A stretch of 64,000 nucleotides of DNA from Laetmonice hystrix (lineage: Eukaryota). The notes below the pieces were generated by a model that searched no databases, was not told where the DNA came from, and saw only the letters and a list, made by a program, of their open reading frames with translations. The stretch spans positions 17,548,001 through 17,612,000 of the forward strand of contig OZ249436.1 of assembly GCA_965235115.1 (NCBI GenBank), in the 5' to 3' direction. The position numbers were made by a program, and so were the translations under genes. Each line of letters starts with the position of its first letter. Position 1 is the first letter of the stretch. Below, in pieces: positions 6,885 through 32,500 of the stretch.

Positions 6885-9800
6885 TCAAAGATTTTCCAGC
6901 TTTCTCTCCTGGACCTCCTTTCTGTCGGCCTTTCCTGGCGAGTTCCTCTTTTCACAAAACTGGATCCTCCTCTGGATACCTCCGTGTGACTGTACGGAGG
7001 GGGGTAAGATCGACTTTGGTAGATTAACAACACAAACAACTGGCTGGTTTGTAGCTGTAGGTAGTACGTCATCGACAACAGTGACGTTTCCTGTGGCCAT
7101 GTCAACCGCCGTCACGTCACGTCTGTAGGCAAAACTTCCACTGTCGTCGAAACAACCTCCTCCTACCACGTAAAGTATGTTACCCAGAACGACGGACCCC
7201 GCCTGCCAGTGTGCCTGTTTTAATCTTGACAACACTGACCACTGCTGTTTGGTCGTGTCAAACACTTCCACAGGAAGCACATTAACTCCCTTGTCGTCCA
7301 TCTTGTCCATCCCTCCACACACCACCACCCGACCCGGCACGGACCCTGCCGTGTGGTACCGACGACGGTTTATCATTGACGGTGCTGTGGTCCACTCCCC
7401 ACGTCTCTCGTCATACGTACAGACACTATTACTGATACCACTGACCGAGCCACCAGTAGCATATAAAATCCCATCACATAGAGTGCTAGCGTGAGCGGAC
7501 CTTTGTCCAGCCATACTGGCCGCTGGCGACCATCTTAGCGTGGTTAGGTCGAATTGTTCGCATGAAGAGTATCGCTGACTTCCGTCTCGTCCGCCGACAG
7601 CCAGAACAGCCTCACCACTGGGTAGAATGTCCACCGTGAACAGTGTCCGGGCCACAGCCATTGACGGCAATTGATGCCATGAGTTAAGATGAGAGTTAAA
7701 TAACCAGCAGTCGTTTCTCGCTGGTGGCTCACTTTGATGGAATCTGTCCTGGCCGCCGATAATGATCACATAAGGACCAATGCAGACAGCGTTAGAAGTG
7801 GCTGTTTTGACCTGAAGATCAGTTGTCAAGGTCTCAAACGGTAGAAGCCGTCCGTCTGATAGCATCGGAGCAGCCATCATAGCGGGGATAGGGTCACCGC
7901 CAGTAGAACCTCCAACAACAGTCAAACATCGGGTCGACGGCCCTCCACCAACAGGGCAATGAATGCCAAGTTTCGCGAGTGCGTTGTCGACTTTTATACT
8001 TCCCTTGTCGAATAACACTGTAGAAAAGGAAACGTCCTGATCAGTGTCCGTTCCATTTTTCCGACTATCCATAGTTACTTGTTCACAGGCATGGATTATG
8101 GACTCGTTTATGTCGCCGTCACGGATGTATTTGGCCACCTCGCGGACCACATCAACATTATTAGGCGTTACCATCAGATGACCAGTGTACAACAGATGCA
8201 ACACCACACCAAGACCAGCCGCTGGTATGTTGTCCAGCTTGACCCGAGGGCTGACACTCTTTGAAATTTGATCGTCGATGTACTCAGAATAGGACCCGAT
8301 GATTTTAGAATGGACAGGAAACTTGACTCCGTCTGCCTCGAGCTCTACGTCGATGTCTTCATCCTCGGCTCGCAAGAATTGTACAGTTGAAATGGGGTTG
8401 TCTCGGTCGTAACATTTAGTGGGACAGCACCGTTGAGAAATAGTACATAGTCCTGTAAATACGACACAGGCATTACCTTTGGTATTCTACAGTCACTTCT
8501 AACTACTATAGTTCGAGATTTCGGGCAACTAAAAGACTTAAAAGAAATCACATAAAATAAGGTGGATTCGGCCGCGAATAAAAATAATGTTACCATCCTC
8601 CTTGATCCAGTATCCGAGACTGTGGACGAGGTGGTGCTGCCCAGTTATTGCCAGACGATCCAGGAAGCCGTAGATCTTCTGTAGTGATTTCTGTTGGATG
8701 ATCTTCAGGAGCGTCCGGTTCCTATCCCGTTTGGTCTTTTGGGGATCTGACTGGAAACGAGAGAGTAATAACTCCCGATAACTCTCTTTCAAGTCTCTCT
8801 AGAACTCCCCCACCCGTCCTTCAACAAGCAAAGGGCCTATCAAACAATAGTTTTGTCAACTTTATGTAAGAAACTGGCGTATACCTTAAGTCGCTTGATT
8901 TCTGAACGGGTAAGTATTGTTCCGGTTAGATTCTCCAAAATAACGTCGCAGTCTATGGTCTTCATGAAGTAAGGTTCTGCCTTTTGAAGGTCCCTCTTTA
9001 GGAGTTCCTCCAGGGGCAGGGTGTCTGAATCATCTGTTTGAGTACCCTCATCCTTCGTGGCAGGTCCTGCAATGAATGGTGTCAAAAACTGCGTCACGTA
9101 CGACGGTCACATCACGTCGAAATGAGTCGCGTCCCAACGCAAGACGTCGCATCGCATCAATCAATTAATCTATATTACTTGGAGATACCAATGAATTGGG
9201 CTTGACACTAAATATGTATTATTTTCATATTTATTAAAGGTGGATATATCAACTATGTACGGGCAACAGGCTTAACCCAAATGAATTTTAGAATGTTTCC
9301 TGGTAGAAATTGTTAGAACTACAATGGAATCGAACTCCGATCCTAAGATTAGGCCTACTTCACCAAGTCGCAGTGCGGGGGATGCGTAGAATCAAAACGA
9401 ATTCTTACGGAAAACTCTAAATACTCTATCGTTCCACATCCGATTAAGGCTGGCCATCCAACCCTGAAATAAGGAAAACGCAGGGTTATAACCTTTCCTG
9501 TGAGGCTTTATACTTGCGCCGACAAGTTAAATTCAATATTCTAATCTTTTCACGCACGAATCTCTATTAGAACCATTTATGGACGGTCGTTGATTCAGTG
9601 TTATGTGTCATCTACAGGACTTCCCGCAAGATCTAGAGGGGGCTCATGGCATGACACAATAAGGCTTGACTAACGGGTGGTGGTGTCTTATTCTTCACTT
9701 CTAGCAGGCAGGGAAATTATAGGGCCCAGCCCTAAAGGGCACAGAGCACCGGGCATCAATAAACACACGAACTGAGCGAACTGAGCGAACTGAGATCGTC

Positions 9801-11614
9801 TAGTTATGCCTGGGGGGATTCCCCATAGGGACTGGCTATTGACACCAACACGGAAACAGCTGACCTAAATTAGTTTGACTAATTCCTACACGAAACAGTG
9901 TGTTTGGGTTAGGGTAAAGGTTAGGCCTAGGGTTAGTGTTAGTTTAATCCCAAAATTGTTGTTAAAATAGTCAATAACTTCCGGCCGTGACGTCATACCT
10001 GAAGTCACTGGTTTGTAGCACGACTAATCGATCTCAGTTCGCCCAGTTCGTTCAGTTCGCTGTTTATGATGCCCCAGAGGACCTGCCATGCACTACACGT
10101 CCTTACCTGAAGGCCTGGCATCTCCTCCTCGCTGAGAACATGGAGGTTGGCAAGTCTTGGCAGGATCTCCTCAAGTGTTCTTATGTCCTGCTCTGTGTCA
10201 CCAGAAACCGGCACGATAACTATAAGCGAGTGCATTGGTATATATTACACCTTGTCGACCATATGTCAATTCTACCAGGGGCACGGGGTCTTTATGCGCC
10301 AAGTCGGTAAAGACAAGGCTGCACATAAAATTTTCTTTATGCCATATTGTCAGTTGTGATGACCCAATTGCGGAGCACTGGGACGGGAAAGTGGGACAAT
10401 GGTACTGGAAGGAAATAACCCCTTCTAACCCACTTTAGAGAGACAGGCTCGTCGTGTACAGATATGATTTCATTCGGCTGCACATTTCATTTCATAGCTA
10501 GAGACAACTTGAGCAATGGTCTACAAGAACTTACCAGGGGATGGGAGCAGCTTAGCAACATGGTCTCGGCCCATGGCCTTCAGGCAATCAATTAACTTGG
10601 CGTAATGCCACATCGACCTCCGGGTCAGCAGGTCAAAAAACATGCTTGACTGAGAATTTCCCGGGGTCTTGGCCTGTAACGATGACATAATGGGTCTGAA
10701 GGGTAGGTTAATCGTTAGTGCAGAGGTACCATAATTGTTTATCTTCATCATTACATTATAATAACTTGTGATAGAATAAAAAACAAAATGTACATCGTAT
10801 ATCACATGTATTATACTTATTCTATGGGTATTCAGGCACACAATGTACGGGTATTCAGACACACAACGTATGGATATTCAGACAACGTATGGGTATTCAG
10901 ACACAAGACGTATGGGTATTCAGACACATGACGTATGGGTATTCAGACACACGACATACCTTCAGTTCGTCGATGTTGCACTTATTGAGGATCTCGTCTT
11001 GTATAATATGGTTAAGGAACCGGTCGTTGATCAAGAGGTTGTCGGCGAGGGCCACTCTCCGACGGTTCAGGCCTTTTCTTACCTGGTATTGTAGGGGGTG
11101 ACCTTTTAACGTCTCGTCTCGAGTCTGGATGGAAATCAGTGGCCCCGGTCTCAGAAAGGCTCTAGGCAGCAAGTTTTAAGCTAAGCAGAGCTACGGCAGC
11201 CTATAGGGACATAGACCTTAAATATTGTTTTTAACTTTCCAAATTGATTTTCATCGATATTATCACAGTAATAATAATTTTACTGCGTGGTGGTAATATT
11301 TTCACAGCGGTGATTTTTCCACTCCCGTGAAAATCGATATAGAAAGTTAAAGTGTCCTCCTGCTAAGAGCCTTTCGGAAACCGGTAGGCGAACACATCGT
11401 CAAACAGAGCGGAATTTCTAAAAAAATCAGAAACAGTTTACGTTCCCCTTTACTAACAAAACTAACACGCTATTATCCAACGAACACCTCAGAGTTCGTA
11501 GTGAAACTGAATGTAAAAATCAGAGTGACAAACAGCTAGAAACGTTACCTCCCACTGTAATTTCGTTATCCTCTGCTCTGAATTAGTACGATCAACTTCG
11601 GTCGCGTCTGCCAT
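6885..11614 (-). CDS. CARD-CARD-BTB-Kelch protein (gene B), about 814 aa
   Basis: Exons 11614-11549, 11124-10960, 10673-10535, 10219-10107, 9463-9409, 9066-8885, 8750-8594, 8452-6885 total 2445 nt, GT-AG and in frame. Last exon encodes a BTB (DVELEADGVKFPVHSKII..LLYTG) and six GG-containing Kelch blades. Minus-strand AATAAA at 6799-6794. Confidence 0.8.
9752..10074. mobile_element. MITE-like palindromic insertion in gene B intron 4
   Basis: GGCATCAATAAACA..GAACTGAGCGAACTGAGATCG at the left is the inverse of CGATCTCAGTTCG..TGTTTATGATGCC at the right. Confidence 0.65.
10820..10957. repeat. 23-bp minisatellite abutting the gene B exon 2 donor
   Basis: GTATGGGTATTCAGACACATGAC about 6 times, ending at the donor at 10959. 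Confidence 0.85.
11141..11385. mobile_element. MITE of the GGCCCGGTTTCAGAAAG TIR family
   Basis: Imperfect TIRs; related sequence at about 17579, 30509 and 30750-30905. Confidence 0.6.
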
Positions 11615-12894
11615 CTGTAAAGAAGGATACAAACATTTCTCTGGAAGTGATCAAAAGTTATATTCGGGAGTATTTTCCGCCAGGGCCATGTGTCTATGAC
11701 CGTCAACTCCAGACACGACCCTCTAGAGCACGTTAATTGTGTGTGTGGTTTCAGAAAGTCTGGAAAGAGAAAGTTTGTATAGCTCCTTTCTGGAATCGAA
11801 CCACGGCCCCAAGATTACTGCACCCATTCGCATAGTATAAGGCATTAAGTTTCATTCCCATCACTCGGTGACCGCCAATTCCATGAAAATCAAGCGTTGG
11901 TGGTGGTCGAGCAGGACAATGGACCCTCTCCCCTGATGATCAATCTCATTGTATGTTCAAGTCAATGTCAGGTCCACGACACGTAAGTTTTTGTAGATAA
12001 CCAGCCATAAGCCGATCGCTTCATAACGACAACAGGCAACTGCAATGTTGAGTTCTATTAGATTTCTCCATTTCTGTGGGTACATTTATTGATTTATGTA
12101 GCCTACAGCCTTATCTAACCTAACACCCCATGTATCGTGATGGACTTTAATAACGTGATTCCTTTCATTGATCGTCCTGACTACCATAACAAGTAGAACA
12201 CTGATAAGAGGGGCTAGAATTTCTTAAGGAGATCACTTATCAAGCGAACTATTATGTATCCGCCATACATTACCTACTTGCCAAGCTACAGGTAAAATAT
12301 ATGACCACCTTACAGTTAATTCAAACATACAATTCTGTTCCCGTCCACAGTGCCCGACCGCCGATTTCCGGTCGTTTGAACACAGTCGGTTCGAAATGTT
12401 CACGTATTGCCGATCAGTCCGACCTTCACGATTCCACATTCAGACAGTCGGAACGGTATGTGCAACCGGCTTTTTAAATGGGTTACTTAGTACTAGCCTT
12501 TGTTGATAGAAATAGCTAAGGAATGAAAAGCACAAAATCTTACGTTATGTACATCGAAGTCCTGAGATGGAATTGGCCGACTTCAAAGTCCGAGCGTCGC
12601 AGTGTGTTTGAACACCAAGAGCCGAAGAAAACGGCAGTAGGAAGTTGAAGTTTTATATCTCAGTCAATCCCCTGACCTATCATGTACGTTGACTGGAGGA
12701 ATCAGATATGATATCGCTAAACTGTAACACCAATGAACCTTCCCCGACTGATCACTGACGTCATAAGGATTTCGTGTTTTTTTTTTATTTGGTAGCTTTA
12801 ATGTTCCGGTTTTGTTTTTCTAGCTTTCCTCGTGATGTGTTCCACAAACGTGTGAGCCTTATCTTCATTTTAGTGGATGATCACTGCCAACAAG

Positions 12895-13905: not shown

Positions 13906-14402
13906 GCAGTGCATGATACCCACAGTTAATGTCATGGCTAGGAATGAGCGAATTCGAATCTTTAAAGGCCCTTACCGTTCCTTACCAGATGCGGTAACCA
14001 AACATCTATAAGAAACTACTAAGGGGTAAGAGTGTTTGATATGAAGTGGGAAGACGTCGAATTTCTAATATTGTGAGCTATTATTTTCTTTCTTTCTTTT
14101 TGTCTAGTTGAAAGGGGAAATTTGTAAATCAAACAAAAATCAAGAATAGAGGTTACTGCTTCTTCAGGTGGAGTGGAATGACGGGCGAAAATCGAACCCA
14201 AATCGGCGACCGCAAAGGCGTTGCAGTTCTGTGCTATCAAAGAACGAGGAATCTTAAACTCATCTTCAGATTTCGTATTTTTTATTTTTTCGAAATTGTA
14301 ACAACTTGTAGTCAACTTTATTAAACATGAAGGCGGGGGGGGGGGGGCTCCGAGGACTTCTAGACTCCTTCATTGGAATTCGGAATAGAAACATCTCAGC
14401 GT

Positions 14403-17400
14403 TCAGTCGTCCTTATTGCGATTTTCAACCTTCAGCCAAACACCATTGATTGGCTGCAGCAGTCCGCCGAACTTGAAGGTCAACGGAATCTGGAACAAAT
14501 ATATTGGTCGCTTCACTGTTCCACGCCAGGTGAAATATCACAAAATATAATAATACAAGAAGGCAGGGTTTGCAACAAAAATTATTGTTTTCTTTCTTCA
14601 TTCGTGTCCTAAAATCCATACTGCTCGTCCCTTCGTGAACTTTATTCGACTTCAATCCTACATTAATACATTAATACCTTGTTACATTCAGCAATTATCT
14701 ATATGTAAAGGTGTGTGCACATTGCCAGTCAGCATATTGATCTATCTATATAAAGAGGTGTCTACATTGCTTGAATGTTTTACCTGTGTTTTCCCACAAG
14801 TAACCACCCTGGTTTTCCGAAGTATGTGGACGATGCCGATTTTCACCTCAAGCAGGGCAAGTCGCATCGCAATGCAGTTTCTTGGGCCATAGCCAAATGG
14901 GATCCAATCGAATGGGCCTCGCTGAGCCTTGTTCTCGGCAGAAAATCTGCCGTATATCATAGAGATTATCACTGGTGTACATATATCATAGACTAGCATT
15001 AGTGTATCATATAGACTATCACTGGTGTACATATCATAGACTAGCATTAGTATATCATATAGACTATCACTGGTGTACATATCATAGACTAGCATTAGTA
15101 TATCATATAGACTATCACTGGTGTACATATCATAGACTAGCATTAGTATATCATATAGACTATCACTGGTGTACATATCATAGACTAGCATTAGTATATC
15201 ATATAGACTATCACTGGTGTAAATATCATAGACTCTTTAGTCAGAACAAGTCTTACCTTTCAGGTTTGAATTTCTCAGGCTCAGGCCATCTTTTCTCGTC
15301 ATGGTGTATCCCAAAGATAGGAATGTTCACCATCATGCCTTTCCTCAGATGGATGCCATTAATAGTGACATCTCGCGCGGCTTCGCGGTTTCCCCTAAAC
15401 ATGAAATTTTCCAGCAGTAAAAGAAATAATCCTTGTCTGACTGCGTGTAAAAGGTACACTACAGGAATGTCTATAAGTTGATATCAAGTTAATGTAGACG
15501 TGAGATTGTAGATATCAAGTTAATGTAGACGTGAGATTGTAGATATCAAGTTAATGTAGACGTGAGATTGTAGACATCAAGTTAATGTAGACGTGAGATT
15601 GTAGATATCAAGTTAATGTAGACGTGAGATTGTAGATATCAAGTTAATGTAGACGTGAGATTGTAGATATCAAGTTAATGTAGACGTGAGATTGTAGATA
15701 TCAAGTTAATGTAGACGTGAGATTGTAGATATCAAGTTAATGTAGACGTGAGATTAGCTGTCATTACAGTATCAGTTGCCCGGCATTGTAACATTTTGGT
15801 GTGACGGATAATAGTCACGTGTACTGACTGAAAGTTGGGGATATAGTCACGTGTACTGACTGAAAGTTGGGGATATAGTTACGTGTACTGACTGAAAGTT
15901 GGGGATATAGTTACGTGTACTGACTGAAAGGTGCGGATATAGTCACGTGTACTGACTGAAAGGTGGGGATATAGTCACGTGTACTGACTGAAAGGTGCTG
16001 ATATAGTCACGTGTACTCAGTGAAAGGTGGGGATATAGTCACGTGTACTGAGTAAAAGGTGCTGATATAGTCACGTGTACTCAGTGAAAGGTGGGGATAT
16101 AGTCAAGTGTACTGATTGAAAGGTGGGGATATAGTTTCGTGTACTGAGTGAAAGGTGGGGATATAGTTACGTGTACTCACTGAAAGGCGGGCGGATAGAA
16201 TCGAAGTGATTCCATGAGGCACTGGTCCAAGTACTGCATTCCTTTCACGGTCTCATATTTCACATCCTTGTTTAAGGAGGAGTAAATAAATTACCAATAT
16301 TAAATCAAATAATCCAAGAGTCAATATAATTGTGCCTACTCGTATTCAATCTTATTTACCTAGATGTCTGACATCTGCAAGTAGTTCATCTGGTTAACCC
16401 AGTAAGCCTACCCTTGATGGCCAGGTTTAAAGGCAAAACTTGGCTAGAGGTAATCTTCTAGGTACATGTGTACATGTATTCTGACCTTGTCTCCGACAGT
16501 GTCCTCTATCTCCCGGGCTAGTTTCTCCTGACAGTTTGGGTTTAAAGCCATGTTGTACAGGAAAAGGGACAAAGTAGTTGCCGTGGTGTCAAATCCAGCC
16601 AGGAAGAAAAGGAAGCTATTGGCCAGGACCACCTCATTTGAGACACCTAACTCAGTCACAAGAACAAGAAACAAGTATAGAAAGAGGCGCATCAACGAAT
16701 CCTTCTTCTTTTTTTTTTTTACTTATTTTTGTTTTGCCGCAGATCTGAAAACATTAGTGTGTTATCCATAGATGTCAGTTCCTATGCTACAGCATAGGGT
16801 AATCGTAGGCTGTGACAAAGTGATCCACTAGGTCTCTGTGTCCAGTCCTTGAGATCGCCAGGCTGTGACAAAGTTACCCACTAGGTGTCTGTGTCCAGTC
16901 CTTGAGATCGCAAGGCTGTGACAAAGTTACCCACTAGGTCTCTGTGTCCTGTCCTTGAGATCGCTAGGCTGTGACAAAGTTACCCACCATGTCTCTGTGT
17001 CCAGTCTTTGAGATCGCGGGGCTGTGACAAAGTTACCCACTAGGTCTCTGTGCCCTGTCCTTGAGATCGCAAGGCTGTGACAAAGTTACCCATTAGGTCT
17101 CTGTGTCCTGTCCTTGAGATTGCTAGGCTGTGACAAAGTTACCCACTAGGTCTCTGTGCCCTGTCCTTGAAATCGCAAGGCTGTGACAAAGTTACCCACT
17201 AGGTGTCTGTGTCCAGTCCTTGAGATCGCTAGGCTGTGACAAAGTTACCCACTCGGTCTCTGTGTCCAGTCCTTGAGATCGCAGGGCTGTGACAAAGTTA
17301 CCCACTAGGTGTCTGTGTCCAGTCCTTGAGATCGCTAGGCTGTGTCAAAGGTACCTACCATGTTTCTGTGGCCTGTCCTTGGGATTGCTAGTCTGTGTCA

Positions 17401-20400
17401 AAGGTACCCACCATGTTTCTGTGGCCTGTCCTTGAGATCGCTGACCTCGCTTTCGTCACCCTCCGCGTCCTCTCCAGTGTCCCGGATGTCCTCCCCTTTC
17501 TGGGCGTTGATCATCAGCTGCAGGAAGTCTGCCCTGGTCTGCGTGGAGTATACAATCAGCCCTCATTAACTGTATCCTGGCTCCGGTTTCAGAAAGGCTC
17601 TAAACAGTAAGCTTGAAGCTAAGCAGAGCGCTACGGTGACTCACGAGGACACTTTGTCTGGTCCTCTTGTCCTACCCCTTATCCAATCAGCCATCAGTAA
17701 CTGTAAGATCGAGGGGTTAGGGCCCTGCCCCTTACCAGGTCGGATCGAGGGGTTAGGGCCCGGCCCCTTATACCTGGTCGGATCGAGGGGGTTAGGGGGC
17801 CTGCCCTTTACCTGGTCGGATCGAGGGGTTAGGGCCCGGTCCTTTACCTGGTCGGATCGAGGGGTTAGGGCCTGCCCCTTACCTGGTCGGATCGAGGGGT
17901 TAGGGGCCCGTCCTTTACCTGGTCGGATCGAGGGGTTAGGGCCCGGCCCCTTATACCTGGTCGGATCGAGGGGGTTAGGGGGCCTGTCCTTTACCTGGTC
18001 GGATCGAGGGGTTAGGGGCCTGCCCCTTACCTGGTCGACTCAAGGGGTTAGGGGCCTGTCCTTTACCTGGTCGGATCGAGGGGTTAGGGCCGTGCCCCTT
18101 ACCTAGTCGGATCGAGGGCTTAGGGCCGTGCCCCTTACCAGGTCGGATCGAGGGGTTAGGGGCCTGCCCCTTACCTGGGCGGATCGAGGGGTTAGGGGGC
18201 CTGCCCCTTACCTGGTCGCTATCCTGTCGTCGAGATTTCATTGTTTGCTCAAGAACACCAATGAAAAAGTTGCGGACATCTCTTGGAACGAAGGTCGTTA
18301 TGCCCAGCAGTTTTAGTAACTTTCGTAGGCCCGGGAGCATCACTGAAATGGTTCACAAAAAACATAATTTTATAGTTTTTATGTCGTCGAACCACGGCAA
18401 AGCACGATTCATCGATGGTCTAATGAAAGATTGTCGAACTGCAAGTTTAATATGCCAATGTTTCGAATGAAAACGTGCAGAGCATTTCAAGCGACATTTA
18501 AGTTACACGTAATTAGGCACAGTTGAATTTGATTTACTACACACACGTACACATGAAAAAGGTGAAAGGGCTAACTTGGAATGCCCTCAATCCGTTCTTC
18601 ACAAAGGCACTTTCTTTATCCTTCAGAGAGTCGAGTCGGATTCCAAAAGCTGTGGCGGCAATGACATCCATCGTAAAACTAGAAGCACATCTGAAGAAAC
18701 ATAGAAATGACCTTTTTCTTAGATTACAAATACTCAAGGCGAATTTACACAAAACCTTGAGGCTGGGGTGGCAGAGTACATATCTGCAAACATTTTAAAG
18801 CACAATTTTCAATACAGTAGTTATTATTCTAACATAATCTTTCTATACTGAAACTGATATTGAGACGAAGTGGAAGGATTGGATATATTAATATAAAGTA
18901 ATCCACGTACTTCTTCATTTCAAGTTCATGTCCATGTTGCTCTGCCAAATTCTCAGCCATCTGGGCACCACATCTGTTAATCTCAACTGCCATCTGTAAT
19001 ACCGCAAACATTTTTATATCATAATGATTACATTGTCGACGTAATGAGGAGATACATATAAAACTACATGCATAGGGGCATAAATGCACAACAAAATACA
19101 TAACAACAACTATAGTTTAAAAAATTGGATTGGAATAGACTGGCCAGAGTATATGCTATATAGAGGGGCCAGGGTATATGCTATAGACTGACCAGGATAT
19201 ATGCTATAGACTAACCAGGGTATATGGTATAGGCTGACCAGGGTATATGCTACAGACTGACCGGGGTATATGCTATAGACTGACCAGGGTATATGTTATA
19301 GACTGACCAGGGCTATAGACTGACCAGGGTACACCGTATATGCTATAGGCTGACCAGGGTATATGCTATAGACTGACTAGGGTACATGCTATAGACTGAC
19401 CAGAGTTTTTGCTATAGATTGACCAGGGTATATGCTATAGACTGACCAGCGTATATGCTATAGACTGACCATCTTATGCTAATGACTGACCTGAGTATGG
19501 TAATTATTAATTTACCTACCCGTTTAAGTTTTCCAGTGCTGAACACTGGACTCATTACTGTGCGTAGATCCTTCCAGCTCTCGCCTCGTGCATTCGACAA
19601 CATTTTGTCGAAAAGTTCATCGCCAGAGGTGAGGTTCTTCATCAGCCACAGAAATATATAATTGACTCTATTTCGGTGAAGTATAATTGACGAGAAATCG
19701 TTAAGTGCAAATATTTAATTAAAAAATATATACTATGTCCAAAGAAATTTTCATGAAAGTGTTGTTTGTGTGTGAGAGAGAAGTAAGATCTAAGCAAGAT
19801 ATACCAACCGCTCGATCCGTGAAGTTTGAAAAGTCCTTGACCAAAACTTGAGACAGGAAGCTGTCATCAAAAACTGTCAGGCCTGCTCTACTTCCGAAGA
19901 AGACACTGGATGAAAATGGTTTTAATATAAGACTCATTCACTTATAAATTCAGACATTAATTTTCTCATAACTGCAGGACTCGATTCTATTGGAGAGAAC
20001 TGAAAATCTCTTATAAATTTCCCAGTGTGGAGTCTACCGTTTTAAACGTCGCAATTTCATATTCAGGTATATGTATTTGTAAGATCATTTTAATGAGGAA
20101 TTACTTTGATAGTGATCATTAAAGCGTCAAGCAGCCTTGAGGTATGTTTACTTACGGTACATGTTCACCATAGGTGTTATGCAACTTGACCTCTGTCCAC
20201 GGGAACGTCTGTTTAAACAGTAACATGCGTCATGTATGTACTCCTAGACTCCTGAGCACTCCTGGCGGTTTCCCTCCCGGCGGCGCCCCCCCCCCCGTCA
20301 ACTCCCCCCCCCTGGTCAAGTTCCCACCCGGTACAGTCCCACGCGGAATGTTTCCCACCCGGTGTATTTCCCCCTGCCCAGTAATGTAAATGAATGACAC

Positions 20401-23400
20401 GAGGTACTGGACAGAGTTTCATTAATTCTTTACTTATTAACTCTGGCATTCATGGAACATTATATTGGACATATCGGGTGGATAAAAAAAACGCCCCGAA
20501 TTTCAAACTTTAATATTTCAAAAACTATGCATTATAATTCAATAACGTTTGTTTTAATATCACTTCATGATATTATCTCTGGTATGTTAAAGTTTCAGCT
20601 CAATAGTTTTTATATTAATCCCGTGGCGCTAAAAACAAAAATCATTGTCTAAAAGCGCAATGCCGGAATTAGGTCAAATATCATGCAGCTGCCAGGTGTC
20701 CAATTTGATACCTGTTTGATGCACCGCATTGTACCTTGGGTAAAAAAATTCAATATTTAGATTTTGCATGTATTACAATATGTATAATGTTGTGGACCAC
20801 TAGATATAATAAATTATGTTCTATTCCTATAGTACTTCTAGAGAAAACCAGATGTTTAATGTGCCAAACTCTACAGAGAAACTGCAACATTAGGACGATA
20901 TGACTGTAACCAGAAGTTCAAGGGAAACCGTATCATTATCACGTTTAGCAACACGTTCAGAACGTTGCGTATTTACCAATGTTGGGAAGATATTTCCCTA
21001 TCAGAGATCAGGAAGTGCATTGGCTCATAGAAAAGGAGACTGAGAGCAGTATGAAGTGAAAACGGGGGACCGATTGACCTACTCTAGTGTGAGGCCAGGG
21101 ACTCTGGGTGCGACTACAACTCGCTTTAGCCCGGCATTGCGCTTTTGTACAATGATTTTTGTTTTTAGTGCCACGGAAAAATTATCCAAGCTATTCAGTT
21201 GTAACATTAACAACTAAGAGTCATCATCATGAAGTGATATTAAGAAAAATTTCATTGAATTATAATCATTACTTTTTGAAATATTGAAGTTTAAATTTCG
21301 GGGCGTTTTTTTATCCACCCGATATATCAAATTATATAAAATTTCACGCAATTTCATTAATTTTTTTTACTAATGAACTCAACATATTGACAGAGGCCTA
21401 TATACCAGTCTCCGTATCAATCTTGATATCCATGCCTTAAACATTGAGCTGAACTGTTCTTTTGAAATGGGGCGCGATTGGGAAAATCGGAATTGTTTAC
21501 TTTACATTGAGAACTGTTCTTTAAAATGGCAGATTGTGAGATTGTAAGTGGCACGGCCCAATTATTTCAGGGTGAGTCGCACCGGGACTTGCTGTCTCCA
21601 TGCATTATGCTATCAGCAACGGGTCAGTCAGCCAGGATAGGGCATCCTGTGGGCCAATGCGTAACGTGGTAACGACAGACAGCTATAGAACCGGGTTACC
21701 GGATGGGATAGGAATCAGGGGGAAGAGGACGGGGGGGATATTCGGGTGGGAAACCGCCGGGGGGACCGCCGGGGGGGGGGGGGGGCGCCTAGACCCACAG
21801 GGACCGTATCCCTGGGTAGGACCGATTTTTTCGTTTTATTTGACTGATGCTCTTATAAAAGCAGGTTATAGATTTGAATTTACATTCTCTTTTTCCCACA
21901 GTAATATTTTACTGGCCTGATATTATAAGCCATGAGTGGGATATGTTAAATCTCATTGATTTATTCGATTCTCTATATCAACCATTCTCCCCCATAACCG
22001 ATCTGTCCCTAGCTTTAGCCATTCTATCCAGAACCGTACTGTCCCTACCTTTAGCCATTCTCCCCAGAGCCGATCTGTCCCTACCTTTAACCATTCTCCC
22101 CAGAACCGATCTGTCCCGGTTTAATCATTATCCCCAGAACCCATCTTACCCGTTCTTTAGTCATTCTCCCCAGAACCGATCTGTCCATACATTTAGCCAT
22201 TCTCCACAGGACAGATCTATCCCGGTGTAATCATTCTCCCCAGAACCGATCTGTCCCTACCGTTAGCCATTCTCCCCAGAATCGATCTGTCCCGGTTTAA
22301 TCATTCTCCCCAGAATTGATCTGTCGCTACCCTTAGCAACTATCCCCAGAACCGATTCTGTCCTTACCTTTGTCCATTCTCCCCAGAGCCGCATTGTTCC
22401 GACCAGTGGCAGAGGACGCGGGCCCTTTAACCCCTGCTTTGCGAAGAAGTTGAAGTCGCGGGTATTGTTCCTAAAATACAAATATTTAACACACAAGGAC
22501 TACTCAATACTGGGAGGTAATCAGAAGATCCTAATGTCACTTTTCAGTCACACATCACTGTTTTGATAACTAGACTAGGCTTACAAACAGATAAACCGAA
22601 CTCTTATAGTATGTCAAAAAATGAAATTTTCCTCTAAACGCGCTTTAGATTGTGAAGCTTCCAGCCCCCAACAAGAGCCATTGCATCTTGAAGATAGGAT
22701 AATATACTGTCCCTATGCATTGGAAGGTGGCTGATATAATGTGACTTCTAGCTTAAGTATCCATCATTAAAGGGGCATGCTATGAAACACGTTTTTGGGG
22801 ATTTGCGGCAATTATCCAACATGACCGTGTACTAGGGATCCAAGTAAATAATCCTACCACAGCATTTTGTCCTCCGACGTGTTTTCGCTGCGTATGCACA
22901 GCACAAGTAGGTTCTATACGACCAAACCTATAGATTTCTCCCGATAGCACATCTCCCGCCATAATTTGGCGGACAACCCCCCATAAACCCGCGTAATTGC
23001 ATACTGTGTCACATCCTGTGTGTGCACGTTCTGCATGTGCTTAGTCACGTGCTTTGCTTAGTTGTAAACAATTCAGCAGTGGCACTCGATCGCCCGGCAT
23101 CAGAATGCCACCCAAAAAATATTTTACGAAATCGGCAGAGAAGCGGGCAAGGGAGCTTAATAAACTTCGATTTCTCACGCAAAATGAAACTGATAAGTCT
23201 GTCTTTGTTTACTAAGCAATTTTAATGAAGGATCTCTTTATGAAAACAGCAAAAGTTCTATGAAATACCGATTTTTAACGTTTCCTCATAATATGCCCCT
23301 TTAATAGGCACTATGGGATTGTAGCTAACAGTCCACTAGGTCTGATAATGTCCATTTCAGTGTTAGTGAATGTTCTTAGACCTATCTCCTATCATATTAA

Positions 23401-23698
23401 GGCTGCTGACAGAGACAGTTAGTGAATGTTGTGAGACCTATCTCCTACCATAAGAAGGCTGCTGACAGAGACAGAACTAGTTAGTGAATGTTGTGAGACC
23501 TATCTCCTACCATAGGAAGGCTGCTGGCAGAGACAGTTAGTGAATATTGTGAGACCTATCTCCTACCATAGGAAGGCTGCCAACGGTGGCAGTTAGTAAA
23601 TTGTTTTGAGACATAATCTCCTACCATAGGAAGGCGATGATGCCAACAGTGACCAGTATAACCCACACAGGAATGTCGATCAGGTCGAGGATCAGCAT
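14403..23698 (-). CDS. CYP3A: Cytochrome P450, clan 3 (CYP3A-like), copy 1, about 519 aa
   Basis: Exons 23698-23625, 22470-22368, 20208-20156, 19905-19809, 19636-19520, 18993-18911, 18690-18551, 18342-18212, 17538-17412, 16646-16486, 16266-16181, 15394-15257, 14946-14784, 14489-14403 total 1560 nt in frame. N-terminal anchor, GPRPLP, AGFDTT, ESLR, PERF and heme motif PFGYGPRNCIA present. Symbol is family-level resemblance only. Confidence 0.93.
14955..15235. repeat. 42-bp intronic minisatellite next to the heme-exon acceptor (CYP copy 1)
   Basis: About 6.5 units here; only about 1.5 units at the equivalent site in copy 2 (27275-27355). Confidence 0.9.
15478..15755. repeat. 31-bp intronic minisatellite (CYP copy 1)
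   Basis: GATATCAAGTTAATGTAGACGTGAGATTGTA about 9 times; single copy in paralog near 28578-28606. Confidence 0.92.
15811..16190 (-). repeat. 32-bp array copying the CYP copy 1 exon 11 donor
   Basis: About 12 units of CCTTTCA|GTSAGTACACGTG; real donor GTGAGT at 16180. Confidence 0.9.
16808..17445 (-). repeat. 53-bp array copying the CYP copy 1 exon 9 end and donor
   Basis: About 12 units related to GCGATCTCAAGGACAGGCCACAGAAACATG|GTGGGTACC. Confidence 0.9.
17706..18218 (-). repeat. About 36-bp array copying the CYP copy 1 exon 8 donor
   Basis: About 14 units, most containing CGACCAG|GTAAGG or GTAAAG. Confidence 0.9.
19135..19490. repeat. 23-bp intronic minisatellite (CYP copy 1 intron 5)
   Basis: TATATGCTATAGACTGACCAGGG repeated; larger equivalent array at 33420-34110. 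Confidence 0.9.
20474..21322 (+). mobile_element. Internally deleted Tc1/mariner-type DNA transposon
   Basis: Long TIRs starting TCGGGTGGATAAAAAAA, flanked by TA on both sides. Internal relic near 21010-21085 reads IRKCIGS*KRRLRAV*SENGGPIDLL, resembling a mariner-family transposase C-terminus. Absent from CYP copy 2. Confidence 0.8.
21980..22392 (-). repeat. 36-bp array copying the CYP copy 1 exon 2 end and donor
   Basis: About 11 units of TCTGGGGAGAATGG..AAAG|GTAGGGACAGATCGG; about 1.5 units in copy 2. Confidence 0.88.
22771..23300. mobile_element. Non-autonomous DNA transposon with TTAA target duplication (Kolobok-like termini)
   Basis: TTAA|AGGGGCAT ... ATGCCCCT|TTAA; absent from the equivalent intron of copy 2. 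Confidence 0.7.
23362..23635 (-). repeat. About 56-bp array copying the CYP copy 1 exon 1 donor
   Basis: About 5 units containing CCTTCCTATG|GTAGGAGAT. Confidence 0.85.
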
Positions 23699-24584
23699 TG
23701 TCGAACGTTTGCGAGATCCAACGATTACAATGTGTACAGGAACAGAATCGTCTGCAGTCTATGGGCCAATATAGGTCGAGCATGTAGCTACCTTTCAGAT
23801 TGCCCAACGTTCAGCAATATAGGCCTACTTACAGTAAATTGTAGGTCAGTGTGCTATGGGTAGCCGATATGAGCATAACCTGGTCTAAATCGCATATTTT
23901 TCATCAGGCTTAACCCGATGTGAAAGATTTTAACAATTTTTTGGGCAAATTACAGAAAGGTACTTAGCATGTTGAAGAGAGAGCCAAACATACCGACAGA
24001 CGGACAGAATTTACAACCAGGAAGAGTAGCCGTGGCGGATTTAGGTGGGCTTTTTCAAAAGCAGGGCCCCTCCATACTATAATTGAGTTGAGCTGACCCT
24101 TAACTTGACCATCCACCCACACAGCCCCGCGAAATGGGTAAAATATATCTGCTCCCTGGATCCGCACTGCTTCATCATACAATGTAACTTACGTGGGCCC
24201 ATTACATAGGCATAGATCTACAATACAATCGATCCTTTGCAATATAACGTGGGCCCATTACATACAATGCAATCAGTCCATTGCAATAAAATACAATCTG
24301 GGCCCATTAGCCTACAATAAAACCTGACACGTGACTTATCTATTCTTAGACGTGAGTCACGCGCCCAGTGACTTGTCAACAGAAGGAGTCCGTTTACCTG
24401 AATCATTGTTGAGAATAGTTAGATCGAACCTACAAATAGTTAGATCGAACCTAAAATGATCTATGTCATCTACTACCACTGCATAGATCTATTGCTGTAG
24501 AACTGTGCGTTATCTCGCGATATTCTTCCCAATAACAACATTCACTGGGGGTCGGGGTTTGTGCGTGTAAATGTGTAAATTGTG

Positions 24585-25345
24585 AAAATAAATTAAACTA
24601 AATAAAACATACCACTACAGATGTTTTTAGAATGGAAAGCGAGTTTGTAAGTTTCTCTTTGAGTTGGCACGTACTTACCAAGACAGCGTCAAAGAACATT
24701 CATGTGGGGACGTATGCAATTATAATATTTTCACTCCAACAATATTCATGACCTCAACCAGTTGAAACCATCATAACTCATGCTCGTCGTCCAAGACAGA
24801 GACGGTCCTAGTTAAACGGCAGGTGGCAGCACCTGCTGCGCCAACAGCGAGGACTCCAACTCGAGAACGAGCGAGACATGGAAACGTCATAATGTTTTTC
24901 ATGTCTGTGAATCTGTCGAGTTTGTGTTCCTCTTTTGGTTGTATGCTTGCTGTTAATTTTGTGATGGTTGTGATGTTTTACAAAGAAATAAAATTCCTTG
25001 AAAGCCTATATTGTCTCACTTAATGGTAAATCCACAGATGCAGAGTTCTCCAAGTAGGCCCACCTATAGGCCTAGGCCTATTAGAAAATAGGGGCCTATA
25101 GGCCTATATTGGTAATGCATGTAGCCTACACAATCAACAAATAAGAATATAACAAGATCTAAAATGTAACTACAATAATGTTTGATAGATTAACCATTTT
25201 TAATAATGCAGTGCCAAACATCCGCGAGTCCAGACGTCAACATCATCTATTTTCACCAATGATTGATTACGTTTTACAACCTGACACCTACTGGCACGTC
25301 ATCTAGCCGTCAGTGAGGTCATCCACCCTGACACCTAGTGTGGCG
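24585..25345 (-). mobile_element. Interspersed repeat, inverted copy of 40430-41600
   Basis: 24620-25030 is the reverse complement of about 41030-41460; both copies end in GACCGCTAGATRGCG-type units. Confidence 0.75.
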
Positions 25346-26500
25346 CTATCTAGCGGTCAGTGAATTGAGCGGTATTGTGACAACCAGATAGATGCTATAA
25401 TATTTAACCACTACGGGCAGCTTAATCACTACAGGCCGCCATATACCCCACCTGCCTGTACTGATTAGGACCCTATATAACCTACCCCATCTGCCTGTAA
25501 TTATTAGGGGTCATTCCATGTGAAATCACCCAGGGCTCCCATAGTGATAGTCTCAGATTTGCTTCAAATTTTTTTGACATGTTGCCTGCGGTGCCAAATG
25601 AAAATATACCAAGTTTTACCTCATTATCATTTATAGTTTTTTTTTAATAGGGGGTCAAAAAAGTGGGTGTGGCTCCTTTTATCGCGACAAAAATGCTGCC
25701 GACAGATTTACTCCCATCTCTAACAAACCATAGCTCAGGAACTATCAAAGATATCAACTTGATTTTTTCAACATAGATCCTTCATCATGTACTCTCTTGT
25801 TGGCAGGTGTCAGATTAAAATTTAATCAAGTAGGAGTCAAGCAATTATCTGCTACATTTAAGCATTTTTCTGACGAAAATGAAAAATCGTCACATTTCAG
25901 ATCAGCTTTTCACCCATACCTCATAGGATGAATTGAGTTTAGTTGTTTCTAAATGATAGTACAACTAAAGGGCTTCCTACAGTAACAAATGCAGTTACTT
26001 AAGATCAGTAGTTTTTTGGCAAGAATAGCAGGTACCGGGTCTCAGCAGGAAAAAAACCTATTTGGGCCCCTTTTTTTCCCCAAATAATCCTATCCAGGAA
26101 TAGGGTTATAATAACTTCTCTTATGCTAACCTAAATCAGCACACCCTACTACAGTGCCATGACAACAGTTTAGTCTCAATATAACGTTTTAAAACCTTCA
26201 TTATGTATAAATAACATCTCTACCGATTACAAGAATTCTTTAAGCTTCATTAAACATTAAACACATTCTTTTGCCCATATCTCAGCTAATATTGGTCTCA
26301 GACAAACAAAAGTGGGGTACGCACGATAGCTCTTGATGTGGTGAATGGGAACAAATCATGTAAAACCCTCTACAGCCTTTTATTAAAAAGATATAATCCT
26401 CAGAAGCTTCAACCCCCTAGGATTTCACTTTCGTGACATTAGACCATCTATATTGTACACCCTTCTGGACTCCTTCATTGGAATAGAAATCTCTCATATT

Positions 26501-29500
26501 TTAGTTGTCCTTGTTGCGATTTTCAACCTTCAGCCAAACACCTTTCATTGGCTGCAGCAGTCCGGCGAAGTTGAAGGTCAACGGAATCTGGAACAAATAT
26601 ACGCGAATCCTTTATTGTTCGCTTCACTGTTTCACACTTTGCAATAATCTATATATACAAAGGTATGTGCACATTGGCTTGCTACTCAGCCTATTAATCT
26701 ATAGATGTAAAGGTGTGTGCACATTACCAGTCAGCCTATTAATCTATAGATGTAAAGGTGTGTGCACATTACCAGTCAGCATATTAATCTATAGATGTAA
26801 AGGTGTGTGCACATTGCCAGTCAGCCTAATTCTCTATAGATGTAAAGGTGTGTGCACATTACCAGTCAGCATATTAATCTATAGATGTAAAGGTGTGTGC
26901 ACATTGCTAGTCAGCCTATTAATCTATAGATGTAAAGGTGTGTGCACATTGCCAGTCAGCATATTAATCTATAGATGTAAAGGTGTGTGCACATTGCCAG
27001 TCGATCAGCATATTAATCTATAGATGTAAAGGTGTGTGCACATTACCAGTCAGCATATTAATCTATTGATATAAAGTGTATAAATTTCTTGAATGTTTTT
27101 TACCTCTGTTTTCCCACAAGTAGACACCCTGGTTTTCCGAAGTATGTGGATGATGGCGATTTTCACCTCAAGCAGAGCAAGTCGCATCGCAATGCAGTTT
27201 CTTGGGCCATAGCCAAATGGGATCCAATCGAATGGGCTTCGCTGAGCCTTGTTCTCGGCAGAAAACCTGGCGTATATCATAGAGATTATCACTGGTGTAC
27301 ATCTAATAGACTAGCATTAGTATATCATATACTATCACTGGTGTACATATCAGACTACAGCACAGGTGTAGGCCTATCATAGGCTAACACTGGTGTATCA
27401 TAGACTGGTAATGGTGTATCCTGGCGTATATAATCAATTGGTGTACTGGTGTACAGTATAAGGTGCATGTAGTCCTACATGTCACTCAATTAGTCAGACA
27501 GCAATTTTCTTACTCAATCTGCGTCGAACTCGTACATATTTTCCAAATACCTTAGACCTATGCCTAACATGCACGGTTTTTGAAATATAACCAAGAATAG
27601 CTTTGATTTGGGGGGGGGGGGGGGGGGGGGTCAACGGATCAAATCCATTCGGTCAAATCTCGTTCAAACTGAAAATAGATGCACACATGCATTGCCCTGT
27701 ATGAACCCTTTCTTTGTGTCGAATTTGAAAGAGAACGGTGGAATAAGTAGGCTACTGAGATATGCCCTGAAATGCGACTTTGTCCCCCAATATGTCCTAC
27801 TATCCTTGCCGATAGGAGGACTGGTGGTCGAGTCTAGCCCACTGGCCGATTCCTCCTAGTCATGAATAGTCCCACATTAAGTTGTCAAGGGTCATCGCGC
27901 ATCCTGCATTCTACTCCTTGAGCTCAGGCCCAGGCTAAACCGTGGGAGGTTGACCTTGAAGTCAACTTCATGAATATTAATAGGACCTGGCGTCGGCGTC
28001 ATAGACTCGCCACTAACACTAAACGGTCTTCCCCGTTAAGTAGGTTTTCTCATGAAAATGACCCATAGCGTGGGCCTATGCTTTTGCCTTGCCCAGTTTG
28101 CTGATACACAAATATGTCCCTCCCTGACAATAGGCTGCAGTTTGTGGGACTCTGGTTTAACCATCACGGTTTAACAAGCGAAATTCCAAATTTTATCTTC
28201 CCTGATTTTAGCATCAACCGTCGCTTCGCAAGCTGGCGCTAGCTATCGGTCTCGGCCTCTGACCGCCTTTGCTACAATGATATTAGTATTTTCAATATTT
28301 GGGGTATTTTGTGTTTAGTCACAATCACAAGTCTTACCTTTCAGGTTTGAATTTCTCAGGCTCAGGCCATCTTTTCTCGTCATGGTGTATCCCAAAGATA
28401 GGAATGTTTACCATCATGCCTTTCCTCAGATGGATGCCATTAATAGTGACATCTCGCGCGGCTTCGCGGTTTCCCCTAAACATGAAATTTTCCAGCAGTA
28501 AAAGAAATAATCCTTGTCTGACTGCGTGGATGAATGGTGGTGTAAAAGTTTATACAATACAGGAATGTCTATAAGTTGATATCAAGTTTATGTAGATGTG
28601 AGATTAGCTGTCATTACAGTATCAGTGTCCCTGCATTGTAACATTTCGGTGTGATGGTTAATAGTCACGTGTACTGACTGAAAGTTGGGGATATAGTCAC
28701 GTGTACGGAGTGAAAGGTGGGGATATAGTTACGTGTACTGACTGAAAGGTGGGGATATAGTCACGTGTACGGAGTGAAAGGTGCTGATATAGTCACGTGT
28801 ACTGACTGAAAGGTGCTGATATAGTCACGTGTACTGACTGAAAGGTGGGGATATAGTCAAGTGTATGGACTGTAAAATGGGGATATAGTCACGCGTACTC
28901 ACTGAAAGGCGGGTGGATAGAATCGAAGTGATTCCATGACGCACTGGTCCAAGTACTGCATTCCTTTCACGGTCTCATATTTCACATCCTTGTTTAAGGA
29001 GGAGAGTAAAGAGTTGTATTTCTTTATTTAATGCTGGAACTATTTGCTGTTCAGGGGATTTCTTGAAAGGTGTTGGGGGGGGGGGGGAGGGCTGAAGGCT
29101 TTAGCGGGAGTTTGGGGGTCCTCCCCCAGAAAGTTTTGAAAATTGAAGTGCCATATATGGGTTTTCCTGACATCTGGGACACAAATTTAAGGTGTTATAG
29201 TTAGCTGAAAAAAGTTATCTGAAAAGCGCCCCCTAAATCCGCCAATGTTATTAAAACGTTACAGGCCTATGAAGTACACGTGGAATAAATAAACCACCAA
29301 TAATGAATAAAATAACCCAATAGTCAATAATGTGTTCTGCTCATAGTTAATCTCATTTACCAAGATGCCTTACATCTGCAAGATGTCTTACATCTGCAAG
29401 TTGTCCATCTCGTTAACGCAGTAGGTCTACCCTTAATAGTTTATAGGTAAATATTGGCTAGAGAAAATCTTCTAGGTGTTCTGACCTTGTCTCCGACAGT

Positions 29501-32500
29501 GTCGTCTATCTCCCGGGCTAGTTTCTCCTGACAGTCTGGGTTTAAAGCCATGTTGTACAAGAAAAGGGACAAAGCAGTTGCCGTCGTATCAAATCCAGCC
29601 AGGAAGAAAAGGACGCTATTGGCCATGACCACTTCATTTGAGACACCTAACCCAATCACAAGAACAACAAATAGAAAGAGACACATATGCATCCATCAAC
29701 AAATCCTTCTTTTTTTTGGCCGCATATCTGAAAACAGGCTGTGACAAAGTTACCCACTAGGTGTCTGTGTCCTGTCCTTGAGATCGCGGGGCTGTGACAA
29801 AGTTACCCACTAGGTCTCTGTGTCCTGTCCTTGAGATCGCGGGGCTGTGACAAAGTTACCCACTAGGTCTCTGTGTCCTGTCCTTGAGATCGCGGGGCTG
29901 TGACAAAGTTACCCACTAGGTCTCTGTGTCCTGTCCTTGAGATCGCGGGGCTGTGACAAAGTTACCCACTCGGTCTCTGTGTCCAGTCCTTGAGATCGCA
30001 GGGCTGTGACAAAGTTACCCACTAGGTCTCTGTGTCCAGTCCTTGAGATCGCGGGGCTGTGACAAAGTTACCCACTAGATGTCTGTGTCCAGTCTTTGAG
30101 ATCGCTAGGCTGTGACAAAGTTACCCACTCGATCTCTGTGTCCAGTCCTTGAGATCACAGGGCTGTGACAAAGTTACCCACTAGATGTCTGTGTCCAGTC
30201 CTTGAGATCACGGGGCTGTGACAAAGTTACCCACTAGGTCTTTGTGTCCAGTCCTTGAGATCGCGCGGCTGTATCAAAGGTACCTACCATGTTTCTGTGG
30301 CCTATCCTTGGGATTGCTAGTCTGTGTCAAAGGTACCCACCATGTTTCTGTGGCCTGTCCTTGAGATCGCTGACCTCGCTCTCGTCACCCTCCGCGTCCT
30401 CCCCAGTGTCCCGGATGTCCTCCCCTTTCTGGGCGTTGATCATCAGCTGCAGGAAGTCTGCCCTGGTCTGCGTGGAGTATACAATCAGCCCTCATTAACT
30501 ATATATCCTGGCTCCGGTTTCAGAAAGGCTCCAAATTACAGCAAGTTTGAAGCTAAGCAGAGCGCTACGGTGACTACCGAGGACACAGACACTTTAACTT
30601 TCCATATTTTCATGAATATTTTCACGGCAGTCGAAATATCACCACGATGACAATATTACCCACCGTAAAAATATCGATGAAAATAAATCTATATAAACAC
30701 TAAAGCTCTATGTCCCTATTAGGTCTGCCGTAGCTCTGCTTGTATCCTGGGCCCGGTTTCAGAAAGATTAGCATGATCTGCTTAGCCTTTTAGGACCCCT
30801 GATTGGCTGGTTGAAGCTGAGCAGCAGAGGACCAGCCAATCAGGGGTCCTAAAAAGCTAAGCAGAGCTTAAGTTAAGATCATGCTAACCTTTCTGAAACC
30901 GGGCCCTGGTCTGCACGGATTGTACAATCAACCATCAGTACCTGTATTCTGGTCCTCACGGATTGTACAATCAACCATCAGTACCTGTATTCTGGTCCTC
31001 AGGGATTGTACAATCAACCATCAGTACCTGTATTCTGGTCCTCACGGATTGTACAATCAACCATCAGTACCTGTATTCTGGTCCTCAGGGATTGTACAAT
31101 CAACCATCAGTACCTGTATTCTGGTCCTCAGGGATTGTACAATCAACCATCAGTACCTGTATTCTGGTCCTCAGGGATTGTACAATCAACCATCAGTACC
31201 TGTATTCTGGTCCTCAGGGATTGTACAATCAACCATCAGTACCTGTATTCTGGTCCTCAGGGATTGTACAATCAACCATCAGTACCTGTATTCTGGTCCT
31301 CAGGGATTGTACAATCAACCATCAGTACCTGTATTCTGGTCCTCAGGGATTGTACAATCAACCATCAGTACCTGTATTCTGGTCCTCCCGGATTGTACAA
31401 TCAACCATCAGTACCTGTATTCTGGTCCTCACGGATTGTACAATCAACCATCAGTACCTGTATTCTGGTCCTCACGGATTGTACAATCAACCATCAGTAC
31501 CTGTATTCTGGTCCTCACGGATTGTACAATCAACCATCAGTACCTGTATTCTGGTCTGCGCGGATTGCACAATCAACCATCAGTACTGTGTACTACGGAA
31601 GCCCGTTAGTGCCATAGTGTCGATATATTTTATCTGGCGGCCGCAACACAATTATCTGGCGACCGCCATTATGTTGGCAGATTATGCAATCAACTATCAA
31701 TAACTGTATCCAGTTCTGTTCAGCCATCGGTAACTACATGAGAAAAGTTGCCTCTGTGCGTTGAGCGCGGTTAGGGAACTGCCCCTTACCTGGTCGGATC
31801 GACGGGTTAGGGCCCGGCCCTTTACCTGGTCGGATCGAGGGGTTAGGGGCCTGCCCTTTACCTGGTCGGATCGATGGGTTAGGGGCCTGCCCCTTACCTG
31901 GTCGGATCGAGGGGTTAGGGGCCTGTCCTTTACCTGGTCGGATCGAGGGGTTAGGGGCCTGTCCTTTACCTGGTCGGATCTAGGGGTTAGGGGCCTGCCC
32001 CTTACCTGGTCGACTCGAGGGGTTAGGGGCCTGTCCTTTACCTGGTCGGATCGAGGGGTTAGGGGCCTGCCCCTTGCCTGGTCGGATCGAGGGGTTAGGG
32101 GCCTGTCCTTTACCTGGTCGGATCGAGGGGTTAGGGGCCTGCCCCTTGCCTGGTCGGATCGAGGGGTTAGGGGCCTGCCCCTTACCTGGTCGACTCGAGG
32201 GGTTAGGGGCCTGTCCTTTACCTGGTCGGATCGAGGGGTTAGGGGCCTGCCCCTTGCCTGGTCGGATCGAGGGGTTAGGGGCCTGTCCTTTACCTGGTCG
32301 GATCGAGAGGTTAGGGGCCTGCTCCTTGCCAGGTCGGGTCGAGGGGTTAGGGGGCCTGTGCGTTACCTGGTCGGATCGAGGGGTTAGGGGCCTGTCCTTT
32401 ACCTGGTCGGATCGAGGGGTTAGGGGGCCTGCCCCTTACCTGGTCGCTATCCTGTCGTCGAGATTTCATTGTTTGCTCAAGTACACCAATGAAAAAGTTC

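Follow-up and report, generated by a model that had tools for sequence, protein, structure and literature searches.

The window analysed here is a 64,000-nucleotide stretch of the Laetmonice hystrix genome (contig OZ249436.1, positions 17,548,001 to 17,612,000). Its minus strand carries a gene whose predicted product joins two CARD domains, a BTB domain and a Kelch propeller, and this gene belongs to a family of at least 24 loci. The Kelch ligand face of the paralogs is under positive selection, and their BTB and CARD domains are conserved. Judged by sequence, the family BTB has lost the CUL3-binding loop, and BACK with it. The family probably consists of variable intracellular sensors, in which Kelch would bind the ligand, BTB would dimerise the protein and the CARDs would give the signal output. 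The gene, its domains and its neighbouring paralog are laid out as follows.

11614-11549, minus strand: coding exon 1, with its ATG at 11614 directly after the acceptor; a homologous short exon is seen by eye in the neighbouring paralog at 2490-2446
11124-10960, minus strand: exon 2, CARD1 first half; 165 nt, phase 0/0
10673-10535, minus strand: exon 3, CARD1 second half; 139 nt, phase 0/1
10192-10107, minus strand: exon 4, by eye like a remnant CARD first half, without a score as CARD
9463-9409, minus strand: exon 5, a 55-nt linker exon of conserved length and phase in the paralogs
9066-8885, minus strand: exon 6, which encodes an acidic linker, with a single TQT motif at about 9052-9032, and CARD2 first half
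8750-8594, minus strand: exon 7, CARD2 second half, phase 0/1
8452-6885, minus strand: exon 8 (terminal), 1568 nt, with BTB, a short linker, the Kelch propeller and the stop
8375-8124, minus strand: BTB domain (Pfam PF00651), without the phi-x-E motif of the alpha3-beta4 loop; MIZ-1 is its best PDB BTB match
7937-7017, minus strand: six-blade Kelch beta-propeller, from an AlphaFold2 model with alignment and from Foldseek
2490-1210, minus strand: neighbouring paralog L021, exons 1, 2, 3 and 5; its CARD2 and BTB-Kelch exons are beyond the left edge of the window

The eight exons, each with an AG acceptor and a GT donor, give one open frame of 2418 nt, or 805 amino acids (aa). These canonical ends and the open frame point to splicing into a single product. 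The initial annotation had likewise joined CARD exons in frame to a BTB-Kelch exon, and its 1568-nt last exon is borne out: the phase-1 acceptor ends at 8453 and no ATG precedes the BTB, the earliest in-frame Met (8174) lying within that domain. Its product length of 814 aa could not be reproduced. Three sequencing runs from one sample cover the introns and contain no splice joints; they behave as DNA and so say nothing on expression. Among 40 variants listed from these runs (65 more exist), 24 are exonic: 10 synonymous, 14 non-synonymous and none nonsense, where 23% would be expected to be synonymous (p 0.035). Coding exon 1 is probably preceded upstream by a non-coding exon, since the ATG directly abuts an acceptor. 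The interval 12544-12770 (minus strand) is the probable non-coding first exon; seen by eye, it holds a TATA-like box (about 12660), a palindrome resembling a cyclic-AMP response element (about 12763) and a splice donor (about 12544). NF-kB-like sites are not enriched, with 6 matches against 7.95 expected. Very high-copy repeats, with a summed contig depth above 30,000, occupy 9716-10117 in intron 4 and 11726-12127 upstream of the gene.

Further evidence for the exon model comes from the family. The genome searched comprises 627 Mb in 35 contigs, and copy counts are lower bounds. Kelch matches give at least 24 loci: the window gene, its left neighbour, 17 on contig C29 (16 of them within 6.64-7.68 Mb, about 1 Mb), three on C7, one on C20 and one on C21. 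Kelch identity of the other loci to the window gene is 51-63%. Homologs of exons 2, 3, 6 and 7 lie upstream of the BTB-Kelch exon, on the same strand and in the same order, in 24/24 loci, and exon lengths and phases are conserved in the 17 paralogs modelled in detail. It is very improbable that the CARD exons form one gene and the BTB-Kelch exon another beside it, with no splicing between them. In favour of that arrangement are the lack of junction reads (in runs that are DNA), an in-frame ATG, in 2/17 paralogs, within the stretch of the last frame that derives from intron, and a phase-1 acceptor failing the strict filter in 3/17. Against it, exon 7 has no stop and finishes with a phase-1 GT donor, both in the window gene and in 17/17 paralogs, and the matching phase-1 acceptor of the last exon passes the same filter in 14/17. 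Genome-wide, 51 of the 52 exon-2/exon-7 matches fall within family genes, the remaining one being a further CARD1 pair that lies upstream of a family gene, and no split CARD occurs in the examined flank of eight ordinary KLHL loci.

By profile score, the N-terminal domains of the window gene are two real CARDs. On a CARD hidden Markov model (HMM), at positions 5-87, spliced CARD1 (aa 39-121) scores 36.9 bits and CARD2 (aa 195-276) 39.6 bits. The paralog CARD domains score 35.8-54.0 bits, and 200 shuffles per domain reach at most 5.3 (CARD1) and 8.5 bits (CARD2). The HMM consists of 70 domains from Pfam-confirmed CARD proteins retrieved via an exon-7 profile search, so CARD1 is an independent test and the second half of CARD2 is not. 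This scoring confirms the two CARD-like domains that had been proposed from the sequence alone. The exon-7 family profile, run against 1.84 billion proteins, retrieved 22, with a Pfam CARD in 21/22 and BTB or Kelch in none. Single half-CARD exons score weakly in Pfam because a phase-0 intron splits each CARD: a Pfam CARD at E<1 is found for 4/10, 1/10, 2/9 and 2/10 members of the four half-domain alignments. Against the PDB, the exon-2 family profile has the RAIDD CARD (residues 6-44, E 0.084) as its sole match and the exon-7 profile has MDA5 as a weak top match (E 0.2); the exon-3 profile finds spurious repeat-protein matches only, and the exon-6 profile has no CARD match. About 50-60 aa separate the two CARDs, which are identical at 11 of 54 aligned residues. 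Exons 4 and 5 were considered as a third CARD and rejected, with 0.1 bit in the window gene and at most 3.8 bits across that gene and 15 paralogs.

Pfam CARD matches number 55 in the genome. A cluster of some 17 similar CARD matches, each in a single exon, on C19 (16.9-22.4 Mb) represents another expanded CARD family. On C10 (region L075:7206-7845, about 7.86 Mb, minus strand) lies a 100-aa CARD-only gene with the same mid-CARD intron position as CARD1 and 27/89 residues identical to it. This gene is a candidate donor, partner or adaptor, or inhibitor.

For the propeller, Pfam matches Kelch_1 in exon 8 with E 2.5e-32. An AlphaFold2 model of this exon from a 27-sequence alignment has a mean predicted local distance difference test score (pLDDT) of 88.2 and a predicted template modelling (TM) score of 0.77; a single-sequence fold with pLDDT 34.5 was not used. 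The predicted layout is a BTB, a low-confidence loop, one helix and the propeller, and Foldseek returns the KEAP1 Kelch domain as best match (target TM 0.91). Pfam, model and Foldseek agree with the six Kelch blades noted earlier.

Positive selection on the paralogs is concentrated on the ligand face. Codon site models, run with an in-house script using IQ-TREE branch lengths and naive empirical Bayes (NEB) posteriors, covered 453 codons in 19 paralogs; the window gene, its neighbour and the C21 copy, all three too diverged, and two broken copies were left out. Model M2a exceeds M1a by 446 in twice the log-likelihood difference, with a non-synonymous to synonymous rate ratio (omega) of 10.8 on 6.3% of sites. 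Of 21 sites with a posterior above 0.95, seven fall among 12 DA-loop positions and 12 among 63 BC-loop positions; that is, 19/21 lie in loops that make up 75 of the 453 sites (Fisher p 3e-14). The DA and BC loops shape the Kelch substrate or ligand pocket (PMC3597819, in excerpt). Omega by class is 7.9 for DA, 2.8 for BC, 1.1 for the linker, 0.46 for BTB and 0.42 for the rest of Kelch. Tree-free ratios of non-synonymous to synonymous differences (pN/pS, 16 copies) are 0.331/0.127 in DA and 0.144/0.093 in BC; they are below 1 in every non-loop class, including BTB (0.018/0.048), CARD1 (0.058/0.104) and CARD2 (0.036/0.061). The selected sites support a side suggestion of the initial annotation, that the propeller might act as a sensor.

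The BTB in exon 8 is matched by Pfam (E 1.8e-8, 35 bits, cut-off 20.5). The alpha3-beta4 loop is 4-6 residues shorter and without phi-x-E in 15/15 family BTBs; M-x-E is kept in 7/7 ordinary KLHLs of the same genome, and phi-x-E is present in 4/5 public KLHL controls where the segment was located. No BACK match (PF07707) is found by Pfam in the window gene, the BTB-to-Kelch distance is 77-94 aa in the family versus 191-195 aa in four KLHL controls, and the model places one helix between the two domains, with no BACK/3-box hairpins. These results agree with the BACK-reduced KLHL described at first. In KLHL3, CUL3 binding depends centrally on the phi-x-E of the alpha3-beta4 loop and is severely disrupted by the E85A substitution, and the 3-box of BACK adds CUL3 affinity (PMC3616122, in excerpt). 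The N-terminal strand and helix of the BTB seem retained in the family alignment. These are the dimerising elements of the domain. An origin of this BTB by grafting from a ZBTB factor, raised by the MIZ-1 match, is not supported: the nearest non-family genomic BTBs are mostly in long KLHL-type frames, and MIZ-1 scores highest because it shares the short loop.

A link to ubiquitination, suggested earlier, is weakened because the phi-x-E loop and BACK/3-box are missing. In its full form this explanation holds that the proteins are CUL3 substrate adaptors, whose variable Kelch captures foreign or host proteins for ubiquitination and whose CARDs place the ligase on signalling complexes. It is unlikely, yet several observations fit it: the conserved BTB, KLHL42 and KBTBD13 as language-model neighbours, the binding of CUL3 by KBTBD13 without a BACK (PMC4067060, in excerpt), and the pathogen-defence role hypothesised for unstable F-box and MATH-BTB families (a secondary mention in PMC1866355, in excerpt). 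Besides the shortened loop and absent hairpins, two relatives speak against it: in the basal gene L040 both the motif and BACK positions 1-16 are already missing, and the sister genes have no BTB match.

Under the preferred interpretation as sensors, each paralog would be a cytosolic dimer whose fast-evolving propeller face binds a variable ligand, probably a foreign (microbial or viral) one. The BTB would serve solely to dimerise the protein. Binding of a multivalent ligand would then cluster the two to three CARDs of each chain, four to six together, and the clustered CARDs might nucleate a caspase or CARD adaptor. The linker with QT repeats between the CARDs may, speculatively, add LC8-driven dimerisation. 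TQT anchors LC8-binding sites (PMC12057147, in excerpt); the window gene has one TQT and the paralogs have 0-16 QT-type repeats, with no TQT in L021. A sister pair that keeps CARD and Kelch with no BTB match counts in favour of sensing.

Positive selection reveals a changing ligand, not its nature. The same anatomy might therefore serve an arms race that involves no pathogen (recognition of gametes or of self and non-self, or control of symbionts), or the proteins might be decoys that sequester CARD partners, as the presence of a CARD-only gene related to CARD1 would allow. Such a role is improbable. By eye, the 805-aa product shows neither a signal peptide nor a membrane segment, as suits a ligand in the cytosol, and in RLR sensors the output comes from N-terminal CARDs in tandem (PMC8998645, in excerpt).

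Several points weigh against the sensor interpretation. The spliced transcript, the ligand and the signalling partners are predictions. The proteins have no conserved NTPase switch of the NLR or RLR kind that would keep the resting state off. The window gene itself stands outside the site model, and its comparison with the paralogs (pN 0.25-0.35, pS 0.55-0.71 in CARD1, CARD2 and last exon) indicates purifying selection overall. Gene conversion is likely in the tandem cluster and can inflate the likelihood test, pS is also elevated in the DA and BC loops, and the loop classes were set by a motif rule after the alignment had been seen, in a model that is our own script with NEB posteriors. KBTBD13 again shows that loss of BACK is compatible with CUL3 binding.

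The relatives within the genome suggest how the family arose. In the Kelch tree, ordinary KLHLs are followed by L040 and then by a split between the 24-gene family and a group of L038, L039 and two proteins of another organism; the tree carries a long-branch warning, and support at the node that unites the two groups is 94/95. The family Kelch branches from within the genome's own KLHL-like genes. L040 (262-2560, minus strand; C30, 8.16 Mb), basal to the family, is a one-CARD-BTB-BACK-Kelch gene. Its CARD-like exon pair scores 18 bits against shuffles of at most 5.6, with a second exon of 139 nt and phase 0/1 like exon 3 of the window gene, the initial 16 profile positions are absent from its BACK, and another organism has a relative (P0052) of its last exon at 56% identity. 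The tandem pair of L039 and its twin (L041:99-8878, plus strand; C30, 17.87 Mb) has one CARD each (44 bits in L039) and Kelch, with no BTB match and a BACK-like remnant visible only in alignment; the second CARD exons of the two are identical and their Kelch loops differ. L038 (C30, 8.44 Mb) is a sister-group Kelch gene; upstream of it lies a long acidic exon, and 20 kb of sequence contains no CARD. The simplest history, as read from these sequences, would be one CARD-KLHL fusion, after which one line lost BACK and the other lost BTB. The initial annotation had proposed a recent capture of a retroposed intronless KLHL. Retroposition is unneeded to explain the single large exon, because the genome has many KLHL genes whose BTB and Kelch share one long open frame, and the fusion is older because L040, with its CARD, stands at the base of the clade.

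Outside this genome, the 13 loci from metagenomes are distant KLHLs of 23-27% identity, none of which has a CARD match beside it. CARD and Kelch were not found together in one public protein in sets of 24, 0, 7 and 22 (HMMER) matches, a weak negative because the word-seeded searches scored top candidates only and the closest relatives look like single-exon gene calls.

Within the family, the sequences indicate a birth-and-death pattern: in addition to the tandem cluster there are three copies with a duplicated phase-1/1 CARD2 module, which makes them three-CARD genes, and two broken copies, one with a BTB frameshift and one interrupted by an inserted repeat of about 4.4 kb. The CARD1, CARD2 and last-exon trees agree at depth, and in all three the window gene and its neighbour are separate from the C7 and C29/C20 groups. 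L021 is about 45% identical to the window gene in the last exon and has no exon-4 match.

The window has other features as well. Exons on both strands at about 14400-31000 look like what we take to be cytochrome P450 (CYP3-like) genes, one of which ends just upstream of the window gene. Exons at 53192-55594 (plus strand) resemble those of a PAQR-family membrane protein. A 273-aa open frame at 63040-63861 (minus strand) has no Pfam match and resembles the C-terminal part of a retrotransposon protein of the LINE (long interspersed nuclear element) type.

The claim that no characterised protein has this layout stands as far as titles and the starts of abstracts go: full-text searching at that level, with subscription journals thinly covered, found no paper describing a CARD-BTB-Kelch architecture. 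The supplements of an amphioxus domain-shuffling paper (PMC2575513) contain neither 'kelch' nor 'BTB'. Invertebrates diversify innate sensors by joining death-fold domains to binding modules, and Kelch in that role was not found in print. The wider proposal, held with somewhat less than even confidence, is a new class of animal intracellular pattern-recognition receptor, in which a KLHL adaptor would have shed its CUL3 interface, gained CARDs, radiated its propellers and come to signal without an NTPase switch. The family would provide a stepwise record, from an ordinary KLHL through one CARD with a trimmed BACK and the loss of BACK or BTB to tandem expansion and ligand-face selection. In addition, it offers 22 visibly unbroken copies, in which the scaffold is near-constant and the binding faces differ, together with the candidate CARD-only partner.

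Among known systems, the nearest clusters by language-model features (0.93-0.94) are KBTBD13 and KLHL42, which share BTB and Kelch; no CARDs are listed for those clusters, however, and the family has 24 copies and a positively selected face. The likeness to KBTBD proteins, defined as BTB and Kelch without BACK (PMC4067060, in excerpt), is one of descriptive class, and KBTBD13 binds CUL3 whereas the family BTB is without phi-x-E. KEAP1, KLHL3 and KLHL11, BTB-BACK-Kelch adaptors of CUL3, have the same propeller fold, but the family has no BACK, 3-box or phi-x-E and has two to three added CARDs. RIG-I, MDA5 and NOD2-type NLRs also place tandem N-terminal CARDs before a ligand-binding module. In the family, by contrast, the proposed sensor is a Kelch propeller without helicase, NACHT or LRR; Pfam matches no DExD/H helicase or NACHT in the five exons scanned, the other three being 22, 28 and 18 aa. 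Grafting of N-terminal domains is common in lophotrochozoan RLRs (PMC8998645, in excerpt). Expansions of F-box as well as MATH-BTB families in nematodes and plants resemble the family in birth-and-death evolution, ligase-adaptor ancestry and a proposed role in defence (PMC1866355, secondary, in excerpt). They differ from it in having no death-fold output. Those families also retain a cullin-binding module. In TRIM5alpha, a dimerising core is combined with a binding domain that has hypervariable loops, and sensing is by avidity; the logic of the family is alike, although the TRIM5alpha domains (RING-B-box-coiled coil-SPRY) are unrelated to its own. Grafting of death-fold domains onto sensors is itself a known theme, and within it there is a real chance that this CARD-BTB-Kelch family is a new receptor class.

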